From: an uncultured Dehalococcoidaceae bacterium
Lineage (GTDB): Bacteria > Chloroflexota > Dehalococcoidia > Dehalococcoidales > RBG-16-60-22
Reading direction: 5' to 3'
NCBI GenBank assembly: GCA_964580635.1
Contig: CAZOMF010000003.1
Location: forward strand, 1 to 35,268
Length of the DNA: 35,268 bases
Under the pieces are notes generated by a model, which was not told where the DNA came from, ran no database searches, and saw only the letters and a list, made by a program, of their open reading frames with translations. Of this stretch, positions 7,757 through 31,751 are shown piece by piece (the stretch's first letter is position 1; each line of letters starts with the position of its first letter). A program made the position numbers and the translations under genes.

Positions 7757-7788
7757 AAAAAAGGGAGCAGCGCCGTATCGCTGCTCCC
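7757..7788 (-). terminator. rho-independent terminator closing the peptide-maturation operon
   Basis: A perfect 10-bp stem pairs gggagcagcg (7763-7772) with cgctgctccc (7779-7788). On the minus strand it is followed by UUUUUU (plus-strand aaaaaa at 7757-7762). It lies about 155 nt downstream of the small ORF stop. Confidence 0.75.
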
Positions 7789-7942
7789 TTTCCCAGGAAA
7801 GGGATGGCTCTGGTCCATTGTCGAGCGGAACGGCAGCCCCCGGAACGATGAGGCTGACACCTCATCATCTTTGGAGCATCGATGTAATCGATCCCTCGTC
7901 GCGAGAAATGAGGTCGGAAAGGGTGCCTTCCGTTACGGCGGT

Positions 7943-8092
7943 CTACGGACAGCAGATGCCAAAATTGGGCTGGTTCTGGGCGACGGGGCCTGAGACGCCG
8001 CCGTCGATCGAGCTGCCGCCCTGGCAGGCGAGGAGTGTCACGTCGATGACTTCGATTTCCATGGCGGGCTTCACATACGAGTCCTTCATCAT
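7943..8092 (-). CDS. candidate RiPP precursor peptide, 49 aa (48 from the second ATG): MMKDSYVKPAMEIEVIDVTLLACQGGSSIDGGVSGPVAQNQPNFGICCP
   Basis: I hand-translated this from the minus strand; it is below the length cut-off of the ORF track. AAGGAGG (plus coordinates 8098-8104) lies 4 and 7 nt upstream of the tandem ATGs at 8092 and 8089. The first ATG overlaps the rSAM stop as TGATG. The ORF ends at TAG (7945-7943). It has a charged leader-like N-terminal half, a Gly/Ser/Pro-rich C-terminal half and three Cys (C23, C47, C48). Confidence 0.65.
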   Translation of the reverse strand: MMKDSYVKPAMEIEVIDVTLLACQGGSSIDGGVSGPVAQNQPNFGICCP

Positions 8093-9120
8093 CACACCTC
8101 CTTTCTTTGCGTTATATAGCTGTACTTGAGGTGGGCGTTTCGGCAGGCAGTGGGGGCCGGACTCGTCACGGATCCGGTCTCACTGTAGGCTACCCCCATA
8201 CAGCGGTGGCAGAATGCGGCTATGGCGCATGCTTTACACTCGGTCATGTCGTCCTCGGTGACCGAACGCAGCTGTTCCAGTTCCTTGCAGGGATGTGTTT
8301 TCCATAGTTCTTGGAAACCGGTTTCCAGCAGGTTCCCTATCCGCATCGGCATGAGCAGGCAGGGGAACACATCCCCGTTCGGGGCGACCGAGCAGATGCC
8401 TTTACCGGCTTTGCAGGGGCCGACTTTCGCGGCCGCTTGACTTTCCTCGATCCATTGCTGTCCCATCCCCTTGCAGAGCTGCTGCGAGGCGGCTTCGTGA
8501 CCGAAGGGTTCCATCGAACCGCTCTTGCCGGGCACGAACTCGGACGAAAGATGGACGTTGACGCCCAGTTTCGTGCCGAGCGCCTTGATGTCCGGTATCT
8601 CGTGGACGTTGCTGTCCATTACGTTCCCTTGCAGGCCCACCGTGACCTCGTGATGTTTCAGTAGCCGGATCGCCTCCATGAGCCGGTCGAAGGAGCCGGG
8701 CACCCCGGTGATGGCGTCATGGGTCTGACTGCACGCTCCGTGCAGGCTCAGTCCGACCTGGACCGGCTCCAGCAGCGCCAGTTCGTAGGCAGTCGTCGGC
8801 GTGAGAAGCGTCCCGTTCGTCAGGATCGTCAGCAGGAAACCGCGGTTCCTGGCGTACCAGGCGATGTCCATGAAGTCCTCCCGGACGAGCACCTCGCCGC
8901 CGGTGAACATCAGGTACATGGTGCCCGCGTCCGCCAGCTGGTCCAGGACGACGGTACACTCTTTGAGTGTCATTTCACGCGGAGAGCGGGTATCCACGTA
9001 GCAGTGGGTGCACCTCAGGTTGCAGCGGTGCGTCAGCTCGATGGACACCTGGAACGGGACCAGATGGTCCGCCGCCCGTTTCATAACTCCGTGCAGTTTC
9101 GGTCGCAGGATGGTACCCAT
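8092..9120 (-). CDS. radical SAM / SPASM-domain peptide-modifying enzyme
   Basis: ELTHRCNLRCTHCY is the CxxxCxxC motif. The C-terminal SPASM-type Cys motifs are CKAGKGICSVAPNGDVFPC and CKACAIAAFCHRC. The start is placed at ATG 9120 (MGTILRPK), which has AGGAG 7 nt upstream. The track start at 9147 would overlap the PqqD gene. Confidence 0.85.
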   Translation of the reverse strand: MGTILRPKLHGVMKRAADHLVPFQVSIELTHRCNLRCTHCYVDTRSPREMTLKECTVVLDQLADAGTMYLMFTGGEVLVREDFMDIAWYARNRGFLLTILTNGTLLTPTTAYELALLEPVQVGLSLHGACSQTHDAITGVPGSFDRLMEAIRLLKHHEVTVGLQGNVMDSNVHEIPDIKALGTKLGVNVHLSSEFVPGKSGSMEPFGHEAASQQLCKGMGQQWIEESQAAAKVGPCKAGKGICSVAPNGDVFPCLLMPMRIGNLLETGFQELWKTHPCKELEQLRSVTEDDMTECKACAIAAFCHRCMGVAYSETGSVTSPAPTACRNAHLKYSYITQRKEV

Positions 9121-9130
9121 GACAGTGCTC

Positions 9131-9424
9131 CTAGGCTCCCTTGACACTGAGCAGCCCGCCGTCCAGCAGCTGCTGGCAGAAGTCCAGCGAGTCCCGCTCG
9201 GCCACGTCCGGCTCGGTGTTGAAGGTATCGGACAGCTTGGATGCGACGTTCGATATGTCGTTGCGGCCGTCCAGCAGGCACCAGATGGCGCTCGCGGTCT
9301 TGTTCAGGACGCGGATGGTGCCGTTATCGCGGTCGGCAATGACGACCTCTCCCGCGATGTTACGCCAGATGACGTCCTCACTCTGGCGGGGGACCATTTC
9401 CAGGCAAACGGATTCATTGGGCAT
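9131..9424 (-). CDS. PqqD-family protein (RiPP recognition element-like)
   Basis: It is 97 aa. The pattern ...VIWRNIAGEVVIADRDNGTIRVLNKTASAIWCLLDGRNDISNVASKL...DSLDFCQQLLDGGLL matches the PqqD/RRE winged-helix family. It overlaps the upstream kinase gene by 11 nt. Confidence 0.8.
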   Translation of the reverse strand: MPNESVCLEMVPRQSEDVIWRNIAGEVVIADRDNGTIRVLNKTASAIWCLLDGRNDISNVASKLSDTFNTEPDVAERDSLDFCQQLLDGGLLSVKGA

Positions 9425-10256
9425 GTTCGATTACCTCCCAGAAAGTAGTGTCAGGTTTAAATCCCAGCGTGTAGCACGGAACGGCCTGGGCCAGACGGGC
9501 GCTTATCTCGGCGCGTTCCTGGAATGTTTTCCGGTCCGATTGCTCGAAGAGCGGCGCCAGGTCGAAGAACTGGCACAGCAACTGCGGGTAGGCTTTCGTT
9601 GTGGAGAGCGGCGTGAGACGCACCTCCGGAGCGTGCTCCAGGAAGAAGATGGCGGCGAGATCGCCCTTTCGCGCGGATGTTCGGGGTACTTCCCCTGTGA
9701 GGGGAGAGCCGGTGATCTGGAACCGGCCGCCGCGGGTGCTGAGCAGCACCGCTTCATCATTCAGCACAGTCCGGTGGCCGGCCAGCTTGGCGACCGTGCT
9801 CTTGCCGGAACCGGAAACCCCGGTGAACAGGTAGAAACGCTCGCCGGATACCACCCCGCACCCGTGTACGATGTGATACTTCACCGCCGCCTGCCGGTAT
9901 TTCTTCAGGACGCCGGCGTACACTCCCCGCAGCAGGTAGCTCATCAGTCGGTAGTCCGCATCCCGGTGGAACAAGGCCTTCTGTGTCCTGACGGCGAGCG
10001 CCCGCCTGTCCCAGTCCAGGCGGCAGTCTATCAGGTCGGGAACGGTATAGTACCTGCTTCCGTTCTGGTGCGCGCGGCTGGCCCTGAGGATTCGCCGTGC
10101 CTGGGCGGGCGTCAGGTTGGAATCCAGCGTGAACGATAGATCGAAGTCCGGTTCCCGGTCGGTCAGGAAAGGCCGGTACGTCTCGGCCATGTCGGTCATG
10201 AACCCGGCATCGTTGGACGAGAATCGCAATGAGGTGTCACCGAGTCTGATGTTCAT
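9414..10256 (-). CDS. HprK-related P-loop kinase-like protein
   Basis: Starting from the internal ATG at 10256 gives MNIRLGDTSLRF..., 280 aa. The Walker A motif is FTGVSGSGKSTVAKLAG, in a context like the C-terminal domain of HPr kinase/phosphorylase relatives. The ATG overlaps the upstream stop as ATGA. The 173-aa N-terminal extension in the track ORF is Arg/Pro/Gly-rich and lies inside the peptidase gene. Confidence 0.7.
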   Translation of the reverse strand: MNIRLGDTSLRFSSNDAGFMTDMAETYRPFLTDREPDFDLSFTLDSNLTPAQARRILRASRAHQNGSRYYTVPDLIDCRLDWDRRALAVRTQKALFHRDADYRLMSYLLRGVYAGVLKKYRQAAVKYHIVHGCGVVSGERFYLFTGVSGSGKSTVAKLAGHRTVLNDEAVLLSTRGGRFQITGSPLTGEVPRTSARKGDLAAIFFLEHAPEVRLTPLSTTKAYPQLLCQFFDLAPLFEQSDRKTFQERAEISARLAQAVPCYTLGFKPDTTFWEVIEHAQ

Positions 10257-10891
10257 TGGGCCGGCTCTCCTGCAGCAGCTGGTTTTTCGGAGATTTGTTC
10301 GCTTCGTGAAAAAAGACGCAAGGCGGCTGCTGTGACCGGGGTGAGCAGCCGGTTGCATACGTCGTTTCGGTCGGGTGAAGGCGAGGGATAGCGGCCGTTC
10401 CGGACATAGCGCCGCCAGGCTGTGGCGAGTCTCAGTGAGAAAAGCGAGATAGACGCGAAGACCAGCAGGCTGAGCTTGCCGGTCCAGTGGTCGGTATCGA
10501 TCGTGCCGTGCGTGCCGCGGATGCGCTGGACCGTTCCGATGACGCAGGCGTCTTCGATATAGCTGCCGTCGGGGTTGGCGTCTCCCTTTTCCAGGTAGTA
10601 CAGACGGCCGTCCCTTTGTTTCCTGCCGATGACCCGGTGGATGACCCAGGTGCCCTGTTTCCGGAACACCGCGATGTCTCCCCACGCCACGCTCGCAGCA
10701 CCCGCCGTGCGGATGAGTACCATGTCTCCCTTGCAGAGTACCGGACGCATACTGTCCGATCCTACCCGGCACCATAACGTGGCGTGCCGCTGCAGGACTT
10801 CTTCCCAGAAATCATAGGGTACGCATTTCGGGGTGCCGGCGACCGGCATCTCTGTTTTCGGCTGTCGTTGCTGCATATTGGTATCGCACAC
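10253..10891 (-). CDS. S24/S26-family serine peptidase (SipW/Sec11-like motif order) with C-terminal TM segment
   Basis: The motif order is GSDSMRPVL...GDMVLI...GDIAVF...WVIHRVIG...EKGDAN, i.e. Ser motif, GD boxes and the HR motif as in S26B-type signal peptidases. A hydrophobic segment LSLLVFASISLFSL lies near the C-terminus. The start codon is uncertain (GTG 10891, ATG 10876 or ATG 10849), and none has a clear SD. Confidence 0.65.
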   Translation of the reverse strand: MCDTNMQQRQPKTEMPVAGTPKCVPYDFWEEVLQRHATLWCRVGSDSMRPVLCKGDMVLIRTAGAASVAWGDIAVFRKQGTWVIHRVIGRKQRDGRLYYLEKGDANPDGSYIEDACVIGTVQRIRGTHGTIDTDHWTGKLSLLVFASISLFSLRLATAWRRYVRNGRYPSPSPDRNDVCNRLLTPVTAAALRLFSRSEQISEKPAAAGEPAQ

Positions 10892-11153
10892 GTACAGGAT
10901 GAAGAGATATAGTTCTAAAACATTGTTCTATTTTAAGGGGTTTTCCGTAATTTAATGGTTTGCGTCCAGTAAAAAAATGGTTTCAATTATAAGAAAAAGG
11001 AGAGAATCCCGGCAAAAAATGATGGTCAATCCGGGAAATACCGAAAAATGCTCGCCGTCCGATAGTACGGGGGTTAGGGCCGGCGACGGGGAAGGTCAGA
11101 GTCAGGTAAGAAGGGCGTTCAGGCGCTGGTGGTACTGGTGCTGCCCAAAGGAA

Positions 11154-11226: not shown

Positions 11227-14200
11227 TTACTGGGGGATGTTGAACAGCAGGTAGAGCGTCCCTCCCGCGTCTTCGTAGCTGATGTTCCAGGTGGTGCCCA
11301 GCGAGGGATCAGCGGGATGGCCCAGGTCTATCTGGAGGTAGAACGTATCGTTGCTCCAGACCGCCGCACCTGCGGGAATGTCAGGGAACGATACGTCGCC
11401 GTCGAGGATAGTGTTGTTGGGCGGCCAGCTGCTGAGGCTCATGTGGACGTTATAGATTTTCTCCGCCCCCAGGTTGCGCAGCCGTACCTTGAGCGCTTCG
11501 GAGAAGATCTTGGTCCGCCGGTTGTAGTTATAGGAGACCATCTTGTACTGGACCGGTACGACCAGCGCATCCGTGGCGGCGGTTACCTCGTAGTCGCAGC
11601 CGCTGAAGGTCAGGTCCACCGTGCCGGCATCGCGGAAGTGGAAGGTATAGGTGCCCGGCAGCAGCTCCATCGTCGGCTGATCGAACCATTGCGCATCTCC
11701 AGTGGGACCGCCATAGGAGATCTGCCCGTCGTAGTTGAGCGTCACGGTGGTCGTCTGCCAGGTCACCGTGAAGTCGCTGTCCGGGACATCCACGCTGATC
11801 TTGGCTTCCGCGGTGCCCTGATATTGCATCTCGAAGGAGTACGTCCCCGCGAATACCTCGCCGGTCGTTTCGCCCGGAGCGGAGCTGCCGGTCAGCGTGC
11901 CCGGATTGGCCGGGAACCATTGGGTCGTGTAGGTGGCGCCGTTGCCCCAGCGCGCGTGACCGCCGTCGAGCGGCGTGGCGTCGCACGTTTCCAGCCGCAG
12001 CGTCAGCAGGTTGGTCTGGTAGTTGAAGAAGGAGTCCAGCGAGACGTCCTGCGTCACCACCTTGGTCGTGGAGTTGTAGCGCATCTCGTAGGACATGGTG
12101 GGGTTGCTGGCCGGACGGACGTCGATTGTTTTGCCCGGGTAGCTGGCATCGAAACCTGTCGGCTGCGGCACGAACCACGTTGTGTAGGTGGCGCCGTAGC
12201 CGCCGCGGCCCTGCCCGCCGTCGAGCGGCGCGCCCAGGTGGTCGGTGAGGACCAGGACGGCCACGTTGAGCGTCGTCTGGACCGGCTCGATGGTCACGTT
12301 CGCCCGTCCGCCGTGACGGAAGTCGAACAGATAGGTGCCCGGCAGCAGTTCCTTGGTCGGCTGGAACGTCGGCGTCGAGTTGAACCAGGTGCTATCGCCG
12401 GTGGCACCGCCGTAGGAGATACTGTCGGAATAGTTGAAGGTGACCGTGCTGGTCTGCCAGGTGAGCGTGGTATTGGCGTTGGGAATATTGACGCTGACCT
12501 TGGCTTCTGAAGTGGCTGCGTACTGCATCTGGAAGGAGTACGTGCCAGGGAAGATCTCGGCGGTCGTCTCGCCGGGCGCCGTGGCGCCGGTGAGCGTCCC
12601 CGGATTGTCCGGCCACCATCGGGTCGTGTAGGTGGCGCCGTTGCCCCAACGCGGCTTGCCGCTATCGAGCGGCGTGCCGGTATGCGTTTCCAGCCGCAGC
12701 GTCAAGGCGATGGTCTGGAAGTTGAAGACTGGATTGACCGCGATGTCCTGTGTCAGGTGCGGGCTGTTGGTGTGGTTCCAGACGGCCCAGACCTCGAGGT
12801 CGCCTGTGCTGGAGGAGAAGGGGGCGTAGAGGTGGCCTGAGGCATCCGTGTACCCCATGTCATGGGTGGAGCCCAACGTGTACTTGACGAGGGCATTCTC
12901 GAGGGGGCTGCCCATGCTGTCGGTGACATAGACATCGACCACCACGGCCCACGGATCGTAGTCGACGTAGTCGCTGACTGCGTTACCCGCGCCGAGCGGG
13001 TTCGTCGTCGCCTGGTAGGGACCGCTGGAAGCGCCCCACCAGTTGTTGAGGGCGTTGACCGTGAACAGTGAGGTCGTGTTATTGATACCGTAGCTCGTAT
13101 TGCTCTCGATCTCACTCAAGTTGATGGCCACTGAGTAGGAGCTGTTGCTGGCAACACCGGCGTCGTCCTGGATGTAGACGCCCTGGTCGTTCCCCGTGAT
13201 GGTCTCGCCGGTCAATGCGACGCTGATGTCGCCGTCTCCCTGGGTGTAGATCTCGTAGCCGTAGAGTCCGTTGTTCTGGAGCATGTTGTTACCGCCGCTG
13301 ACGCTGACCGACGAGCCGTATTCCTTGTCCTCGTCGGTAATGAGCGCGCCGCCGGTGGTGTTGTTGTGGAAGTTGTTGCCGTTCAACGAAAGGACGATGT
13401 CCACGTCGCCGGAGTAGCCGTCGTACTCGTTGCCGGCGTAGAGGCCCCATTGGCAGTCGTAGATTTCGTTGCCGGAGATACCGACGGCTTTGGTCACGTG
13501 AGGGAACGAGCCGAAGAGCGGTCCGGTGAAGTCGTTCTCTACGTAGATGCCGGCGGAGTTGCTGCCGTCGGAGGCGGCCGGCGTGTTGTAGCCGTGGATG
13601 ACGTTCCCGGTGATAGTGCCGTTGGACTGGGAACCCATTTCTATGGCGTACCCGAAGTCCGCGAACGTCTTGTAGAACGTGTTGCCGGTGATGGTCGCGT
13701 TCACGTAGTCATGGGTCAGGAGGGCAACCCGTCCCGCGTCGATGAAGGTGTTGCCAGAGACCGTCACCGCCGCCCGGGACGCGTCGGTGTAACCGGGCGC
13801 CCGGAAATACGTGCCGATCTCGCTGTAGAAGCCGCTCGCGTCGGGAGCGGAGATGTTCTCGATGACGTTGCCAGACAGACTGCCGGTGCTGTCATAGTAC
13901 AGCACGCCGTAGTTGTTGCCCGCGATGAGCTGGAAGTCCATCGTCATGCCGGTGAGGGTCACGCCGGTGGAATTGACCACCCTGATGGCTACCTGGCGGG
14001 TGGGTGAAGAGCCGATGTTCCAGTTCTGTGTGGTCGAGGGCTGGTAGATGACCGTCGCCGGGTTGTCCCCCACGATGGTCAGGCCGGCGTGTCCGTCGAT
14101 GTTCAATGTCTCGTCGTAGGTGCCGGCGCCCACGTGGATGGTATCGGGCGAGCCGGTCATGTCGATGGCGTCCTGGATACTCATGCCGTTCATGACGTAG

Positions 14201-15057
14201 TAGGTGTCCCCGGCGAGGTTATAGATGAGAACGTCGGAGTAGGTCGCGGGGGCGGCGAGGAGACCCTGCGCGAACGTCTGGGCGTCGGCCAGTGTCGTCC
14301 GGTAGAACCACTGCATGTAGTTGTCGGGGGAACGGAAGGCGTAGACAACGTAGCCGAACTGTGCCGGAACGGTGATGTTGGTGAGGTCGTAGTACGTCGG
14401 GGGGTCTTTCTCCAGCAGCAGCGGGATCGATTCGGCGGCGTTGAAGGTACCGCTGAAGACTACCGTATCGGTGCTGGCGCCGGCCGTCTGAACGCTCACG
14501 CCACCCCAGGCATTGCCGCTGGTGGTAACATTGGTCACGCCGACGTTGGTGGAATCCAGGATCTGCACGCCGAAGCCGCTGACCGTGTTATCGACCTCGA
14601 TATTACTGAGGCTGGCCGTGCTGACGGTGTTGAGGTCGATGCCGGTCTTGCCGGAGTTTACCACCTTGATGTTGTCCAGCGTGATGTTGCTGACGTGGGT
14701 GATCTTGAAGCCATAGCTGGAGCCTGATGGGCTGGTCCCGATCAGGGTAAGCCCGGTGATAGTCGTGCCGTCCCCGAAGTTCTGGATGGCATAGCCGGTC
14801 GAGGCGCTCGCGTTCACAGTTGTCGCGTCGATGCCCGCGCCTTGGATGGTAAGTGACTTGCCCTGGAGGTTCAGAGTCTCCGGATACGTTCCGGCTGGCA
14901 CTGTGATCGTGTCACCGCTGTTAGCGGCGTTGATGGCGTCCTGAATGGTCGTTGATACATTGATTGTGCTAGCAGCCGCTACCGGCGCTGCCGGTAGCAC
15001 GAGGGCGCACAATATGAGCAGAATGCTGAAAATAAAACCTGTCGTTTTCTTTTTCAA
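11227..15057 (-). CDS. large secreted right-handed parallel beta-helix repeat protein with C-terminal tandem beta-sandwich-like modules
   Basis: I place the start at TTG 15057, which has AAGGAG 7 nt upstream. This gives MKKKTTGFIFSILLILCALVLPAAPVAAAS, a classic signal peptide. The N-terminal half has repeated G-x-N / I-x-G-N / NNT turns typical of pectin-lyase-fold (PbH1/NosD-like) repeats. The C-terminal half contains duplicated modules of about 146-150 aa. The track start at GTG 15162 adds 35 residues ahead of the signal peptide. Confidence 0.75.
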   Translation of the reverse strand: MKKKTTGFIFSILLILCALVLPAAPVAAASTINVSTTIQDAINAANSGDTITVPAGTYPETLNLQGKSLTIQGAGIDATTVNASASTGYAIQNFGDGTTITGLTLIGTSPSGSSYGFKITHVSNITLDNIKVVNSGKTGIDLNTVSTASLSNIEVDNTVSGFGVQILDSTNVGVTNVTTSGNAWGGVSVQTAGASTDTVVFSGTFNAAESIPLLLEKDPPTYYDLTNITVPAQFGYVVYAFRSPDNYMQWFYRTTLADAQTFAQGLLAAPATYSDVLIYNLAGDTYYVMNGMSIQDAIDMTGSPDTIHVGAGTYDETLNIDGHAGLTIVGDNPATVIYQPSTTQNWNIGSSPTRQVAIRVVNSTGVTLTGMTMDFQLIAGNNYGVLYYDSTGSLSGNVIENISAPDASGFYSEIGTYFRAPGYTDASRAAVTVSGNTFIDAGRVALLTHDYVNATITGNTFYKTFADFGYAIEMGSQSNGTITGNVIHGYNTPAASDGSNSAGIYVENDFTGPLFGSFPHVTKAVGISGNEIYDCQWGLYAGNEYDGYSGDVDIVLSLNGNNFHNNTTGGALITDEDKEYGSSVSVSGGNNMLQNNGLYGYEIYTQGDGDISVALTGETITGNDQGVYIQDDAGVASNSSYSVAINLSEIESNTSYGINNTTSLFTVNALNNWWGASSGPYQATTNPLGAGNAVSDYVDYDPWAVVVDVYVTDSMGSPLENALVKYTLGSTHDMGYTDASGHLYAPFSSSTGDLEVWAVWNHTNSPHLTQDIAVNPVFNFQTIALTLRLETHTGTPLDSGKPRWGNGATYTTRWWPDNPGTLTGATAPGETTAEIFPGTYSFQMQYAATSEAKVSVNIPNANTTLTWQTSTVTFNYSDSISYGGATGDSTWFNSTPTFQPTKELLPGTYLFDFRHGGRANVTIEPVQTTLNVAVLVLTDHLGAPLDGGQGRGGYGATYTTWFVPQPTGFDASYPGKTIDVRPASNPTMSYEMRYNSTTKVVTQDVSLDSFFNYQTNLLTLRLETCDATPLDGGHARWGNGATYTTQWFPANPGTLTGSSAPGETTGEVFAGTYSFEMQYQGTAEAKISVDVPDSDFTVTWQTTTVTLNYDGQISYGGPTGDAQWFDQPTMELLPGTYTFHFRDAGTVDLTFSGCDYEVTAATDALVVPVQYKMVSYNYNRRTKIFSEALKVRLRNLGAEKIYNVHMSLSSWPPNNTILDGDVSFPDIPAGAAVWSNDTFYLQIDLGHPADPSLGTTWNISYEDAGGTLYLLFNIPQ
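11596..12033 (-). repeat. intragenic tandem module, copy 2 (146 codons)
   Basis: This copy reads SFFNYQTNLLTLRLETCDATPLDGGHARWGNGATYTTQWFPANPGTLTGSSAPGETT...TFSGC. It aligns with copy 1 at an offset of 699 nt. For example, 11901-12000 and 12600-12699 are about 80% identical at nucleotide level by eye. Confidence 0.8.
12283..12732 (-). repeat. intragenic tandem module, copy 1 (150 codons)
   Basis: This copy reads PVFNFQTIALTLRLETHTGTPLDSGKPRWGNGATYTTRWWPDNPGTLTGATAPGETT...NVTIEP. Roughly two thirds of residues are identical to copy 2. The 83-codon spacer (12034-12282) looks like a third, more diverged partial copy (LVLTDHLGAPLDGGQGRGGYGATYTTWF). Confidence 0.8.
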
Positions 15058-15371
15058 CGCATGGCTCCTTTCTTCATAGTGTTTGCTCGGGATTTGAAGT
15101 GTTTTTTCGTCGCGTGTCGTCGAGGGACATGATAGAGAATGTTCTGTCGTCTGTTGTTTCACCTCCTCCTAAAAGCAGCTGTAGTTTCAAGCCTTATCAC
15201 TGTCGGGCAGCAACTTTCAGTTCTCCCGGTACGGACATGAATGAGAGTGTCAGGTCGGATATCTTTCTACGAGCATTGGCTTTTTTCTTCGGTATTTTTG
15301 TTTATAAACAGGTACAGTTTTCACACGATTGCTGACAAAACATGCAGTTTCCCACATTTTTCTACATCGTG

Positions 15372-20626: not shown

Positions 20627-20702
20627 TGGTAGCGCATACGGGATTCGAACCCGTGATCTCCGCCTTGAGAGGGCGGCGTCCTAACCGCTAGACGAATGCG
20701 CC
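20627..20702 (-). tRNA. tRNA-Glu(CUC): tRNA-Glu (anticodon CUC), CCA encoded
   Basis: The 76-nt cloverleaf was folded by hand. The acceptor is GGCGCAT/ATGCGCT (G1-U72 wobble), the D stem GTCT/GGAC, the anticodon stem CCGCC/GGCGG with loop CTCTCAA, and the T arm ACGGG-TTCGAAT-CCCGT. Confidence 0.9.
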
Positions 20703-20710
20703 GTATCTAC

Positions 20711-20784
20711 TGGCTGGGGAGAGAGGATTCGAACCTCTGCATACGGATCCAGAGTCCGCTGTCCTACCACTAGACGACTCCCCA
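20711..20784 (-). tRNA. tRNA-Gln(CUG): tRNA-Gln (anticodon CUG), CCA encoded
   Basis: It is 74 nt. The acceptor is TGGGGAG/CTCCCCA, the anticodon stem GCGGA/TCCGT with loop CTCTGGA, and the T arm AGAGG-TTCGAAT-CCTCT. Confidence 0.9.
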
Positions 20785-31666: not shown

Positions 31667-31751
31667 GGGGAAGTGCCGGAACTGGCAGACGGGCCAGACT
31701 TAGGATCTGGTGCAGCGATGCGTGGGGGTTCGAGTCCCCCCTTCCCCACCA
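31667..31751 (+). tRNA. tRNA-Leu(UAG): tRNA-Leu (anticodon UAG), long variable arm, CCA encoded
   Basis: It is 85 nt. The acceptor is GGGGAAG/CTTCCCC, the anticodon stem CCAGA/TCTGG with loop CTTAGGA, the variable arm TGCAGCGATGCGT, and the T arm GGGGG-TTCGAGT-CCCCC. Confidence 0.9.

Follow-up and report, generated by a model that had tools for sequence, protein, structure and literature searches.

Introduction

Linear polyphosphorylated peptides (LPPs) are RiPPs (peptides synthesized ribosomally and then modified post-translationally) of Bacillota produced by LppA/K/B/S/D/N systems, whose conserved set comprises the signal peptidase I (SpI)-like LppS, the RiPP recognition element (RRE) LppB, the HprK-like LppK, the nucleoside triphosphate (NTP) transferase LppN and an exporter (Popov et al., Nat Commun 2026, PMC13381572). 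LPP precursors carry the motif YxxPxVLxHQxIxFETxxS; LppB binds the YxxP leader, [Y/W]xxP being bound by the RREs of lasso peptide and LPP systems alike, and LppK polyphosphorylates core Ser3, which lies 18 residues past the leader Tyr in the LPP motif (PMC13381572). Cleavage by LppS (residues S29, H68 and D93) requires substrate presented by LppB, with a preference for the phosphorylated precursor (PMC13381572). LPPs were described as restricted to Bacillota, and that description does not mention radical S-adenosylmethionine (rSAM) enzymes (PMC13381572). Here we describe a small open reading frame (ORF) in a 35,268-nucleotide stretch of DNA from an uncultured Dehalococcoidaceae bacterium (hereafter the window), which belongs to a five-gene RiPP operon and very probably codes for its precursor peptide, to be matured in all likelihood by an rSAM enzyme, an RRE, a kinase-like protein and an SpI-like protease.

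The LPP system is the closest characterized counterpart of this operon, which encodes on the minus strand, in order, an SpI-like peptidase, a ScmC/HprK-like protein, a PqqD RRE, an rSAM/SPASM enzyme and the peptide. A signal peptidase I of the archaeal type occurs in both systems, the window peptidase scoring above the TIGR02228 cut-off with its Ser, His and Asp conserved, and the window operon likewise contains a discrete PqqD-like RRE gene and, by weak sub-threshold matches, a candidate HprK-like P-loop protein; NTP_transf_5 and an exporter are present in relatives of the window but not beside the window operon itself. The differences are substantial. LPP clusters have no rSAM enzyme, whereas the window operon has one, and the LPP core is long (45 aa in the characterized example) with highly variable precursor C termini, whereas the core of the window family is short and ends in a conserved FFGLCC/CPPC. 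The exporter in the window's relatives is of the ABC-2 type rather than MsbA-like. The leaders share only YxxPx[M/V/I], after which the window family reads xTExI(E/D)IGxLVAGS, the HQxIxFET part of the LPP motif being absent. In a literature search of incomplete coverage for this gene combination, only the LPP paper (PMC13381572) was relevant, and no curated model or description of the peptide family was found.

Results

The peptide gene and its conservation

The ORF overlaps the 3' end of the rSAM gene and is defined by the following features.

7943..8092, minus strand: predicted precursor peptide gene, with 49 codons if begun at ATG 8092 and 48 at the likelier start, ATG 8089; stop TAG at 7945..7943
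8103..8095, minus strand: Shine-Dalgarno sequence AAGGAGGTG, within the final codons of the rSAM gene

The minus-strand DNA of the ORF begins ATG ATG AAG and ends TGT TGT CCG TAG, and translation of 8092..7943 gives MMKDSYVKPAMEIEVIDVTLLACQGGSSIDGGVSGPVAQNQPNFGICCP, with Cys at positions 23, 47 and 48. The location, translation and cysteine positions given in a first-pass annotation of the window were therefore all correct, as were its other sequence-level statements, among them the strong AAGGAGG before the ORF. The TGA stop of the rSAM gene (8094..8092) and the first ATG of the peptide gene have base 8092 in common (TGATG), in keeping with the suggested coupling to the modifying enzyme, and comparable overlaps or short gaps occur in relatives. 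GGAGG stands 4 nt from the first ATG (8092) and 7 nt from the second (8089); the second is the more likely start because the family profile alignment begins at the second Met (MKDSY...). The ORF had also been called unannotated, which holds for the ORF track supplied with the window but not elsewhere: gene callers list the identical 49-aa product, nameless, on 14 metagenome contigs.

The window is 61% GC and contains 840 stop-to-stop ORFs of at least 20 aa, so the length of the ORF is not in itself significant, and we judge it real because of its conservation rather than its size. A word-indexed single-sequence search with the window peptide matched nothing except itself. The family was instead reached by gathering peptides from the syntenic loci of homologous rSAMs, followed by profile searches. 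Homologues of the upstream rSAM were found from 56% identity downward, and eight were taken with their contigs, representing seven distinct loci (L081/82, L083, L084/85, L086, L087, L088 and L089). All seven, with rSAMs 44-56% identical to that of the window, have the neighbourhood of a Peptidase_S24-type gene, ScmC (PF27840), PqqD and rSAM/SPASM. The first-pass annotation had proposed looking for similar peptides 3' of homologous rSAM genes, and in 7/7 loci a small frame lies directly 3' of the rSAM gene, its product alignable to the window peptide (for example MKETYEKPKMATETIEIDLLAAGSARLAIDQLDPYFLLCPPCGVDNR, VKQTYEKPEMVTETVELGALVAGSPAGPVAQDNPFFQLCPPCPG and MLKERYVKPEVTSEVLEPGALGTSGSPAGGGDVSFPVQIFFPSFGFCCK). 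The peptide start overlaps the rSAM stop in L081, L083, L084, L086 and L087 (ATGA or GTGA; ATAA in L083), and the same five of the seven have AAAGG(A/G)GGTG 6-7 nt before the peptide start. L088 and L089 differ in this respect; their leader motifs begin ~20 nt and ~6 nt, respectively, after the rSAM stop. With an overlap (ATGA, GTGA or TGATG) or a gap of a few nucleotides in six of the seven related loci, the position as last gene, overlapping the rSAM stop, is the conserved arrangement of this peptide family and not the unusual one for which it was first taken. In L083 (6996-7124) the frame has ATA, overlapping the rSAM TAA, where relatives have ATG or GTG, and was missed by the gene caller; translation there may begin at a non-canonical codon, or else the start codon has mutated.

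Profiles were built from ten syntenic peptides (A2) and from 31 members (A3). A search of 5.8 billion proteins with A2 returned 39 peptide clusters of 42-84 aa, all nameless or "hypothetical", and A3, run exhaustively with HMMER against 1.84 billion representatives (E<=1e-3), returned 82 of them, all of 30-84 aa; in total 114 distinct members were found. As a leave-one-out control, a hidden Markov model (HMM) built from 34 members with the window sequence excluded was run against the 840 window ORFs, and its sole match was the frame 8179..7946(-) (E=1.7e-15; next best 0.67). This result and the seven syntenic loci both support the reading of the ORF as a precursor peptide gene. Neither NCBIfam nor Pfam had a model matching the window peptide, and nine further peptides (relatives and members of the sister classes) likewise drew no NCBIfam match, even with E allowed up to 10.

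We consider it highly improbable that the ORF is an untranslated frame left open by chance where the rSAM gene ends in GC-rich DNA. The window does hold hundreds of spurious ORFs of similar size, but the leave-one-out model singled out this one at E=1.7e-15; the amino-acid sequence is conserved at 22-52% identity over the 114 members, with Y, P, E and C invariant; and position, overlap and Shine-Dalgarno sequence are kept across loci whose rSAMs are just 44-56% identical. The conservation data effectively refute a chance frame. Comparison across loci thus shows that the ORF is a genuine protein-coding gene whose translation is coupled to that of the rSAM gene, and that it belongs to a conserved family in conserved synteny.

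Architecture of the precursor family

The family consensus is MKExYEKPxMxTExIEIGxLVAGS...GP(I/V)xQLQPFFGLC-C/PPC-x, in which a leader, a junction, a variable linker and a C-terminal core can be distinguished.

8060..8077, minus strand: leader motif Y6-V-K-P9-A-M11, predicted from family alignments to be the RRE-binding element
8024..8035, minus strand: L20-L-A-C23, predicted leader/core junction, aligned with the family L-V-A-(G/S) block; cleavage proposed by analogy with LppS
7946..7990, minus strand: conserved core motif G35-P-V-A-Q-N-Q-P-N-F-G-I-C47-C48-P49, from a position table anchored on the terminal Cys

The leader follows the pattern (M)K-E/D-x-Y-x-K-P-x-[MIV]-x-[TSI]-E-x-[IVL]-[ED]-[IVLP]-G/A-x-L, with Y, P and the subsequent Glu invariant in family alignments and [YFWC]xxPx[LMIV] present in 113 of the 114 members; the lasso-like YxxPxL motif noted at the outset is thus a family feature. 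The junction consists of two hydrophobic residues and Ala/Gly followed by G/S/N/Q, typically LVA-GSP, TVA-GQYG or LGT-SGSP, and reads LLAC-QGGSS in the window. It is this hydrophobic-hydrophobic-Ala-(Gly/small) block that is conserved, and not the column of the GG pair previously put forward as a cleavage site; double-Gly processing also does not fit the operon protease, which is of the signal-peptidase-I type and not a C39 peptidase. The linker between junction and core is variable and rich in Gly, Ser and Pro. A Ser lies 15-24 residues past the leader Tyr in 83 of 113 members, most often at 20.

The core was tabulated for 91 members anchored on the first terminal Cys (position 0), as follows.

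Position -12: G, 34/91
Position -11: P, 67/91
Position -10: I/V, 65/91
Position -8: Q, 36/91
Position -7: L, 47/91
Position -6: Q/E, 53/91
Position -5: P, 68/91
Position -4: F, 42/91
Position -3: F, 62/91
Position -2: G, 69/91
Position -1: L/I, 69/91
Position 0: C, 91/91

The window core, GPVAQNQPNFGICCP, matches this pattern, with unusual Asn residues at -7 and -4. The first terminal Cys is also invariant across the 31-member alignment (A3). Family termini are CC in 58 members and CxxC, mostly with PPC after the first Cys, in 32 (90/113 combined), and exactly one residue follows the last Cys in 57 of these 90. A check on conservation of the YxKPxM/L motif and the cysteines had been proposed; it holds for the motif and the first terminal Cys, whereas Cys23, for which a functional role was rejected, falls in a non-conserved linker column. 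The SIDGG segment thought to recall mycofactocin precursors likewise belongs to the variable linker, and because neither Cys23 nor SIDGG is conserved we attribute the mycofactocin resemblance to chance.

Duplicated forms of the precursor were also observed. L086 (3093-4168) carries three tandem precursor genes ending in CPPCNGDG, PCDDCEPL and PCIPCD, the second and third each behind a ~100-nt duplicated rSAM 3' end that includes the Shine-Dalgarno sequence, and the cassette has evidently been amplified by tandem duplication. Two leaders are fused in a single ORF in L081 (7035-7280; P0123) and in P0122, P0165, P0151, P0153 and P0206, in the form MKEPCEKPKM...KEGSS-MKEPYEEPEM...CPPCSG, with Cys in place of Tyr in the first copy; P0151, P0153 and P0206 have no Cys core and may be decayed copies.

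The operon and its enzymes

The enzymes encoded upstream of the peptide, assigned to families by sequence comparison, and the putative boundaries of the operon are as follows.

8092..9120, minus strand: rSAM/SPASM maturase, 342 aa from ATG 9120; the longest ORF begins at GTG 9147
9131..9424, minus strand: discrete PqqD-type RRE, 97 aa; Pfam PqqD PF05402, E=8.5e-14
9414..10256, minus strand: 280-aa P-loop protein of the ScmC family, HprK-like, with sub-cut-off NCBIfam matches to ScmC (E=6.8e-7) and HprK_rel_A (E=0.0037)
10253..10891, minus strand: archaeal/endoplasmic reticulum-type signal peptidase I (SipW/Sec11-like), predicted leader peptidase; coordinates of the longest ORF, the true start being probably Met6 or Met15
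10986..11015, minus strand: sigma-70-like promoter match 5' of the peptidase gene, 10/12 consensus positions; a consensus match only
7757..7794, minus strand: intrinsic-terminator-like hairpin, a 16-bp stem followed by a T run, ~150 nt past the peptide stop

The rSAM protein matches Pfam Radical_SAM (E=5.5e-22) and SPASM (E=4.3e-10), contains CxxxCxxC and eight conserved SPASM Cys, and was modelled by AlphaFold2 (AF2) with a predicted local distance difference test score (pLDDT) of 92. The best Foldseek structural match of this model was SkfB, with BlsE, SuiB, the anaerobic sulfatase-maturating enzyme anSME and PqqE also among the best and EpeE among the matches, and the StsB and AlbA HMMs align with the protein over its full length. 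TbiB1, a lasso RRE (PDB 5v1u), can be aligned with the whole of the PqqD protein (E=0.002), an ERDxxDF segment being common to both. In the ScmC-like protein the Walker A motif GxxGxGK(S/T) and N-D-E are invariant, and a near-identical orthologue on L090 bears a precomputed PF27840:ScmC match. The peptidase scores 64.3 bits against the TIGR02228 cut-off of 51.85 and matches Pfam Peptidase_S24 (E=2.7e-7); its SxSMxP Ser, HR His and KGD are conserved, with a Ser-to-His spacing of 38 in 8/8 orthologues. The peptidase gene call on L090 (165 aa) begins at Met48, one residue past the predicted catalytic Ser47 of the SDSM motif. Since it loses Ser47, this call would truncate the protein, and the conserved N-terminal region places the true start further upstream.

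The promoter-like site and the terminator hairpin bracket exactly the five genes. Shuffles of the region also yield one such promoter match; the hairpin probably marks the end of the operon. The loop of this hairpin is essentially reverse-complemented in L090/L091 relative to the window and L093 (CGATACGGCG versus CGACGTATCG) between identical 16-bp stems, a pattern resembling an inversion polymorphism of the loop. In relatives the operon is often accompanied by an ABC-2 exporter pair and a PF14907 (NTP_transf_5) nucleotidyltransferase, both of them adjacent to it in L083, L087 and L089. In the window, a tblastn search of the whole stretch found no NTP_transf_5, and the only ABC ATPase matches lie ~23 kb from the operon. 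Between precursor and ABC-2 exporter, L083 (7294-7812) and L087 (3294-3800) encode a ~170-aa conserved protein, absent from the window, with a C-terminal sigma-70 region-4/LuxR-like helix-turn-helix (weak matches), possibly a regulator of the pathway.

Directly upstream of the operon and on the same strand, 11227-15162 encodes a 1311-aa protein with a hydrophobic stretch in its predicted N-terminal region. It contains right-handed beta-helix repeats of the NosD-like kind as well as a pair of long internal repeats (...LTLRLET..PLD.G..RWGNGATYTT.W...), and looks like a large surface or secreted protein. The window also carries three tRNA genes unrelated to the peptide, tRNA-Glu(CTC) with the adjacent tRNA-Gln(CTG) and tRNA-Leu(TAG), at 20627-20784 (-) and 31667-31751 (+).

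Relation to other peptide and cofactor systems

Paeninodin-type lasso peptides are decorated by HPr-kinase homologues and nucleotidyltransferases (PMC8498205). The window locus resembles such phosphorylated lasso systems (paeninodin, pseudomycoidin) in its [Y/W]xxP leader, discrete B1/PqqD RRE, candidate accessory HPr-kinase homologue and, in relatives, nucleotidyltransferase, and differs from them in lacking a lasso cyclase and a B2 cysteine protease, in its predicted leader protease and in having an rSAM as the predicted primary modifying enzyme. Despite the conserved YxxPx[LMIV] leader, the TbiB1-like RRE and a candidate HprK-like protein such as paeninodin-type clusters possess, we find it scarcely credible that the peptide is a lasso precursor. 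Neither an Asn-synthetase-like cyclase nor a B2 transglutaminase-type peptidase was found in the operon, the scanned neighbours or the called genes of related loci, and the protease is a Ser/His/Asp signal peptidase. The Thr after the leader motif, first read as lasso-like, is Thr19, and since it aligns with Gly or other residues in relatives there is no conserved Thr at -2; nor was a conserved Asp/Glu acceptor at core positions 7-9 seen in the family alignments, which were inspected without a dedicated test.

Sactipeptide and ranthipeptide systems (SkfB, AlbA, CteB and PapB-type), whose products carry thioether crosslinks from Cys S to C-alpha, C-beta or C-gamma, share with the window the rSAM/SPASM fold, RRE-dependent recognition (predicted here) and a Cys-containing core. 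In those systems the RRE is an N-terminal domain of the enzyme, whereas the window RRE is a separate protein; the window cysteines lie at the extreme C terminus (CC/CPPC) rather than being spread through the core, and the accessory genes (SpI peptidase and ScmC) differ. The SynChlorMet (Scm) system likewise combines a ScmC-type protein, a PqqD homologue and a PqqE-like rSAM/SPASM enzyme. ScmC and ScmD are the best NCBIfam matches of the corresponding window proteins, and ScmE is one of the NCBIfam matches of the rSAM. SynChlorMet has two rSAM/SPASM genes (ScmE and ScmF), whereas the window and L081-L089 have a single one, and a canonical SynChlorMet cassette (TIGR04248-04251) was rejected on scores far below cut-off (ScmC 28.9 versus 125, ScmD 33.3 versus 100, ScmE 120.4 versus 400 and ScmF 67.9 versus 400).

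Mycofactocin (MftA/B/C) offers a further parallel in its small precursor, discrete PqqD-like chaperone, rSAM/SPASM enzyme and conserved C-terminal core. It was rejected as an identity for the locus: with a cut-off of 265, the MftC HMM reaches 128.4; the peptide has FGICCP at its terminus and no IDGxCGVY; and MftD, E and F genes are lacking. Pyrroloquinoline quinone (PQQ) was rejected similarly (PqqE 88.6 versus 381, PqqD 28.9 versus 46, and no PqqA-like Glu/Tyr motif in the peptide).

The peptide might nevertheless serve, in the manner of PQQ or mycofactocin, as precursor of a cell-internal cofactor or metal/redox ligand and not of a secreted natural product, with the rSAM and PqqD acting on a nearly invariant core whose CC/CPPC end would provide a thiol, redox or metal site. 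Hypervariable cores are the norm among antimicrobial RiPPs, and the core of this family is unusually well conserved for a RiPP across 91 members. The best NCBIfam matches of the rSAM include the mycofactocin maturase (128 bits) and PqqE, although neither the MftC nor the PqqE cut-off is reached, and the window operon has no exporter and neighbours of housekeeping type (a short-chain dehydrogenase/reductase, a glycoside hydrolase and a peroxiredoxin-like protein). A cofactor precursor is, on the whole, unlikely, given the ABC-2 exporter adjacent to the operon in several relatives, the precedent for a signal-peptidase-type leader protease in LPP systems, whose core set has an export pump, and the lack of partner oxidoreductases and of MftD/E/F- or PqqB/C-type genes.

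Proposed maturation pathway

We infer RRE binding, rSAM chemistry, the cleavage site and export for the window peptide from the comparisons above. As the precursor of a RiPP operon, the peptide would dock on the discrete PqqD RRE through its YVKPAM (YxxP) leader, which would add a beta-strand to it in the manner of lasso and LPP systems, and the RRE would present the core to the rSAM/SPASM enzyme, which would modify the conserved C-terminal Cys motif. Our best guess is that Cys becomes joined to upstream core residues by one or two thioether crosslinks; thioether crosslinking seems the most probable reaction because of the invariant Cys, the sactisynthase-like top structural match and the full-length alignments with StsB and AlbA. 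The ScmC/HprK-like protein would use ATP, possibly phosphorylating a Ser just past the junction by analogy with the action of LppK on core Ser3. The SipW-like signal peptidase I would remove the leader at or near L-L-A-C23 from RRE-presented substrate, as in LppS/LppB. The locus is best called a Scm-like or LPP-like rSAM RiPP system, combining rSAM/SPASM modification of an RRE-dependent precursor with LPP-type leader processing.

The same genes could instead make an LPP-type linear phosphorylated peptide, in which phosphorylation by the ScmC/HprK-like protein would define the class and the rSAM would add a secondary, non-crosslinking change such as epimerization or Cys oxidation. The gene core of SpI, RRE and a candidate HprK-like protein is the same, with NTP_transf_5 and an exporter in relatives; the 15-24-residue spacing of Ser from the leader Tyr, seen in 83/113 members, brackets the 18 of LPP precursors; and the epimerase EpeE is among the structural matches of the rSAM. 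We think this improbable nonetheless, because conservation of the peptide peaks at the C-terminal FFGLCC and not at the junction Ser, which a quarter of members do not have, because no locus is without the rSAM and its translation is coupled to that of the peptide, and because the rest of the LPP leader motif (HQxIxFET) is absent.

Several observations weigh against the preferred pathway of rSAM crosslinking with LPP-type leader handling, or against parts of it. Four contigs whose DNA is 98-99% identical have zero substitutions within the ORF, so these strain contigs give no signal in the ratio of nonsynonymous to synonymous substitution (dN/dS) and are uninformative on selection. The rSAM scores below all curated NCBIfam cut-offs, its best matches being heme and mycofactocin maturases, and its reaction can therefore not be assigned. 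Conservation of all eight SPASM Cys presumably means that both auxiliary clusters are fully ligated as in anSME, which leaves ligation of a cluster by a substrate Cys, as in CteB, without support. The similarity of the ScmC-like protein to HprK consists of weak, sub-threshold matches to ScmC, HprK_rel_A and HprK_rel_B (NCBIfam, E=1e-3 to 1e-7); a PDB profile search gave P-loop matches only, and the single-sequence AF2 model was unusable (pLDDT 33). A junction-proximal Ser is missing in 30/113 members, including the AGQYG subclass, which makes a universal Ser kinase role for this protein doubtful. The window operon has no adjacent exporter or nucleotidyltransferase. Finally, a core far more conserved than those of the usual antimicrobial RiPPs keeps a cofactor-like or physiological role a live alternative.

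Related precursor classes

Genome contigs were also scanned with the rSAM pattern RCNLxCxHCY, and the matches listed were rSAMs of ~30% identity from Omnitrophota, Nitrospirota, Acidobacteriota, Verrucomicrobiota, Planctomycetota, deltaproteobacterial metagenome-assembled genomes (MAGs) and others. Directly 3' of these rSAMs, among the matches listed, lies a sister class of peptides with the pattern K(K/R)xYxKPxLxxVxLxxEEaVLaxGCK...C...C...GS, three Cys and an invariant C-terminal Ser. Its members include those at the following positions, among others.

L003, 2800-2979: GCK-class peptide
L004, 7004-7231: GCK-class peptide
L010, 7042-7218: GCK-class peptide
L016, 7009-7194: GCK-class peptide
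L022, 7026-7202: GCK-class peptide
L032, 7019-7195: GCK-class peptide

Many GCK-class loci also carry ScmC, SpI-like peptidase, NTP_transf_5 and ABC-2 genes, and the six GCK-class peptides scanned matched no NCBIfam model. The C-terminal Ser of this class is reminiscent of the one that HPr-kinase homologues phosphorylate in lasso peptides of the paeninodin type.

A third class, (M)xEKKPYsPPeLFRVeLNqEQAILSACS..., occurs in Nitrospiraceae, in cassettes that hold three rSAM/SPASM genes; it is flanked there by the second of these and a kinase-like gene, at the following positions.

L031, 4814-5008: EQAILSACS-class peptide
L036, 7059-7304: EQAILSACS-class peptide
L046, 6975-7223: EQAILSACS-class peptide
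L047, 6966-7274: EQAILSACS-class peptide
L077, 3561-3758: EQAILSACS-class peptide

These cassettes also hold an HprK_rel_B-like protein, NTP_transf_5 and an SpI-like peptidase; because all of their proteins fall under the NCBIfam Scm cut-offs, the idea of a canonical SynChlorMet system was dropped for these loci. A module of YxKPxL leader, RRE and SipW-like peptidase thus seems to be used by several classes of rSAM RiPP in different phyla.

Discussion

We tentatively propose, as a reading that is quite possible and somewhat short of probable, that the peptide family defines an undescribed RiPP class in MAG loci attributed to Dehalococcoidales, in which an rSAM/SPASM enzyme would place a new modification on the near-invariant PFFG(L/I)C-C/PPC and an LPP-type SpI/RRE/HprK-like module would handle the leader. 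The peptide would be the missing substrate for a recurrent, uncharacterized set consisting of a ScmC-like protein, PqqD, an rSAM/SPASM enzyme and a SipW-like peptidase, and with the substrate supplied the chemistry of the rSAM becomes directly testable by co-expression and mass spectrometry. The comparison also exposes annotation gaps that can be fixed, namely the lack of a Pfam or NCBIfam model for the family and peptidase gene calls that lose the catalytic Ser.

For the biology of the family, the conserved 13-residue core ending in CC/CPPC suggests a conserved target or a physiological role, and not a typical hypervariable bacteriocin. The module of signal-peptidase-type protease, RRE and HprK-like protein would be extended beyond Bacillota and tied to radical-SAM chemistry, neither of which is part of the published work on LPPs. 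If the proposed reading holds, the module of RRE, peptidase and YxKPxL leader, the last shared with the two sister classes, would be a widespread, phylum-spanning platform for rSAM RiPPs.

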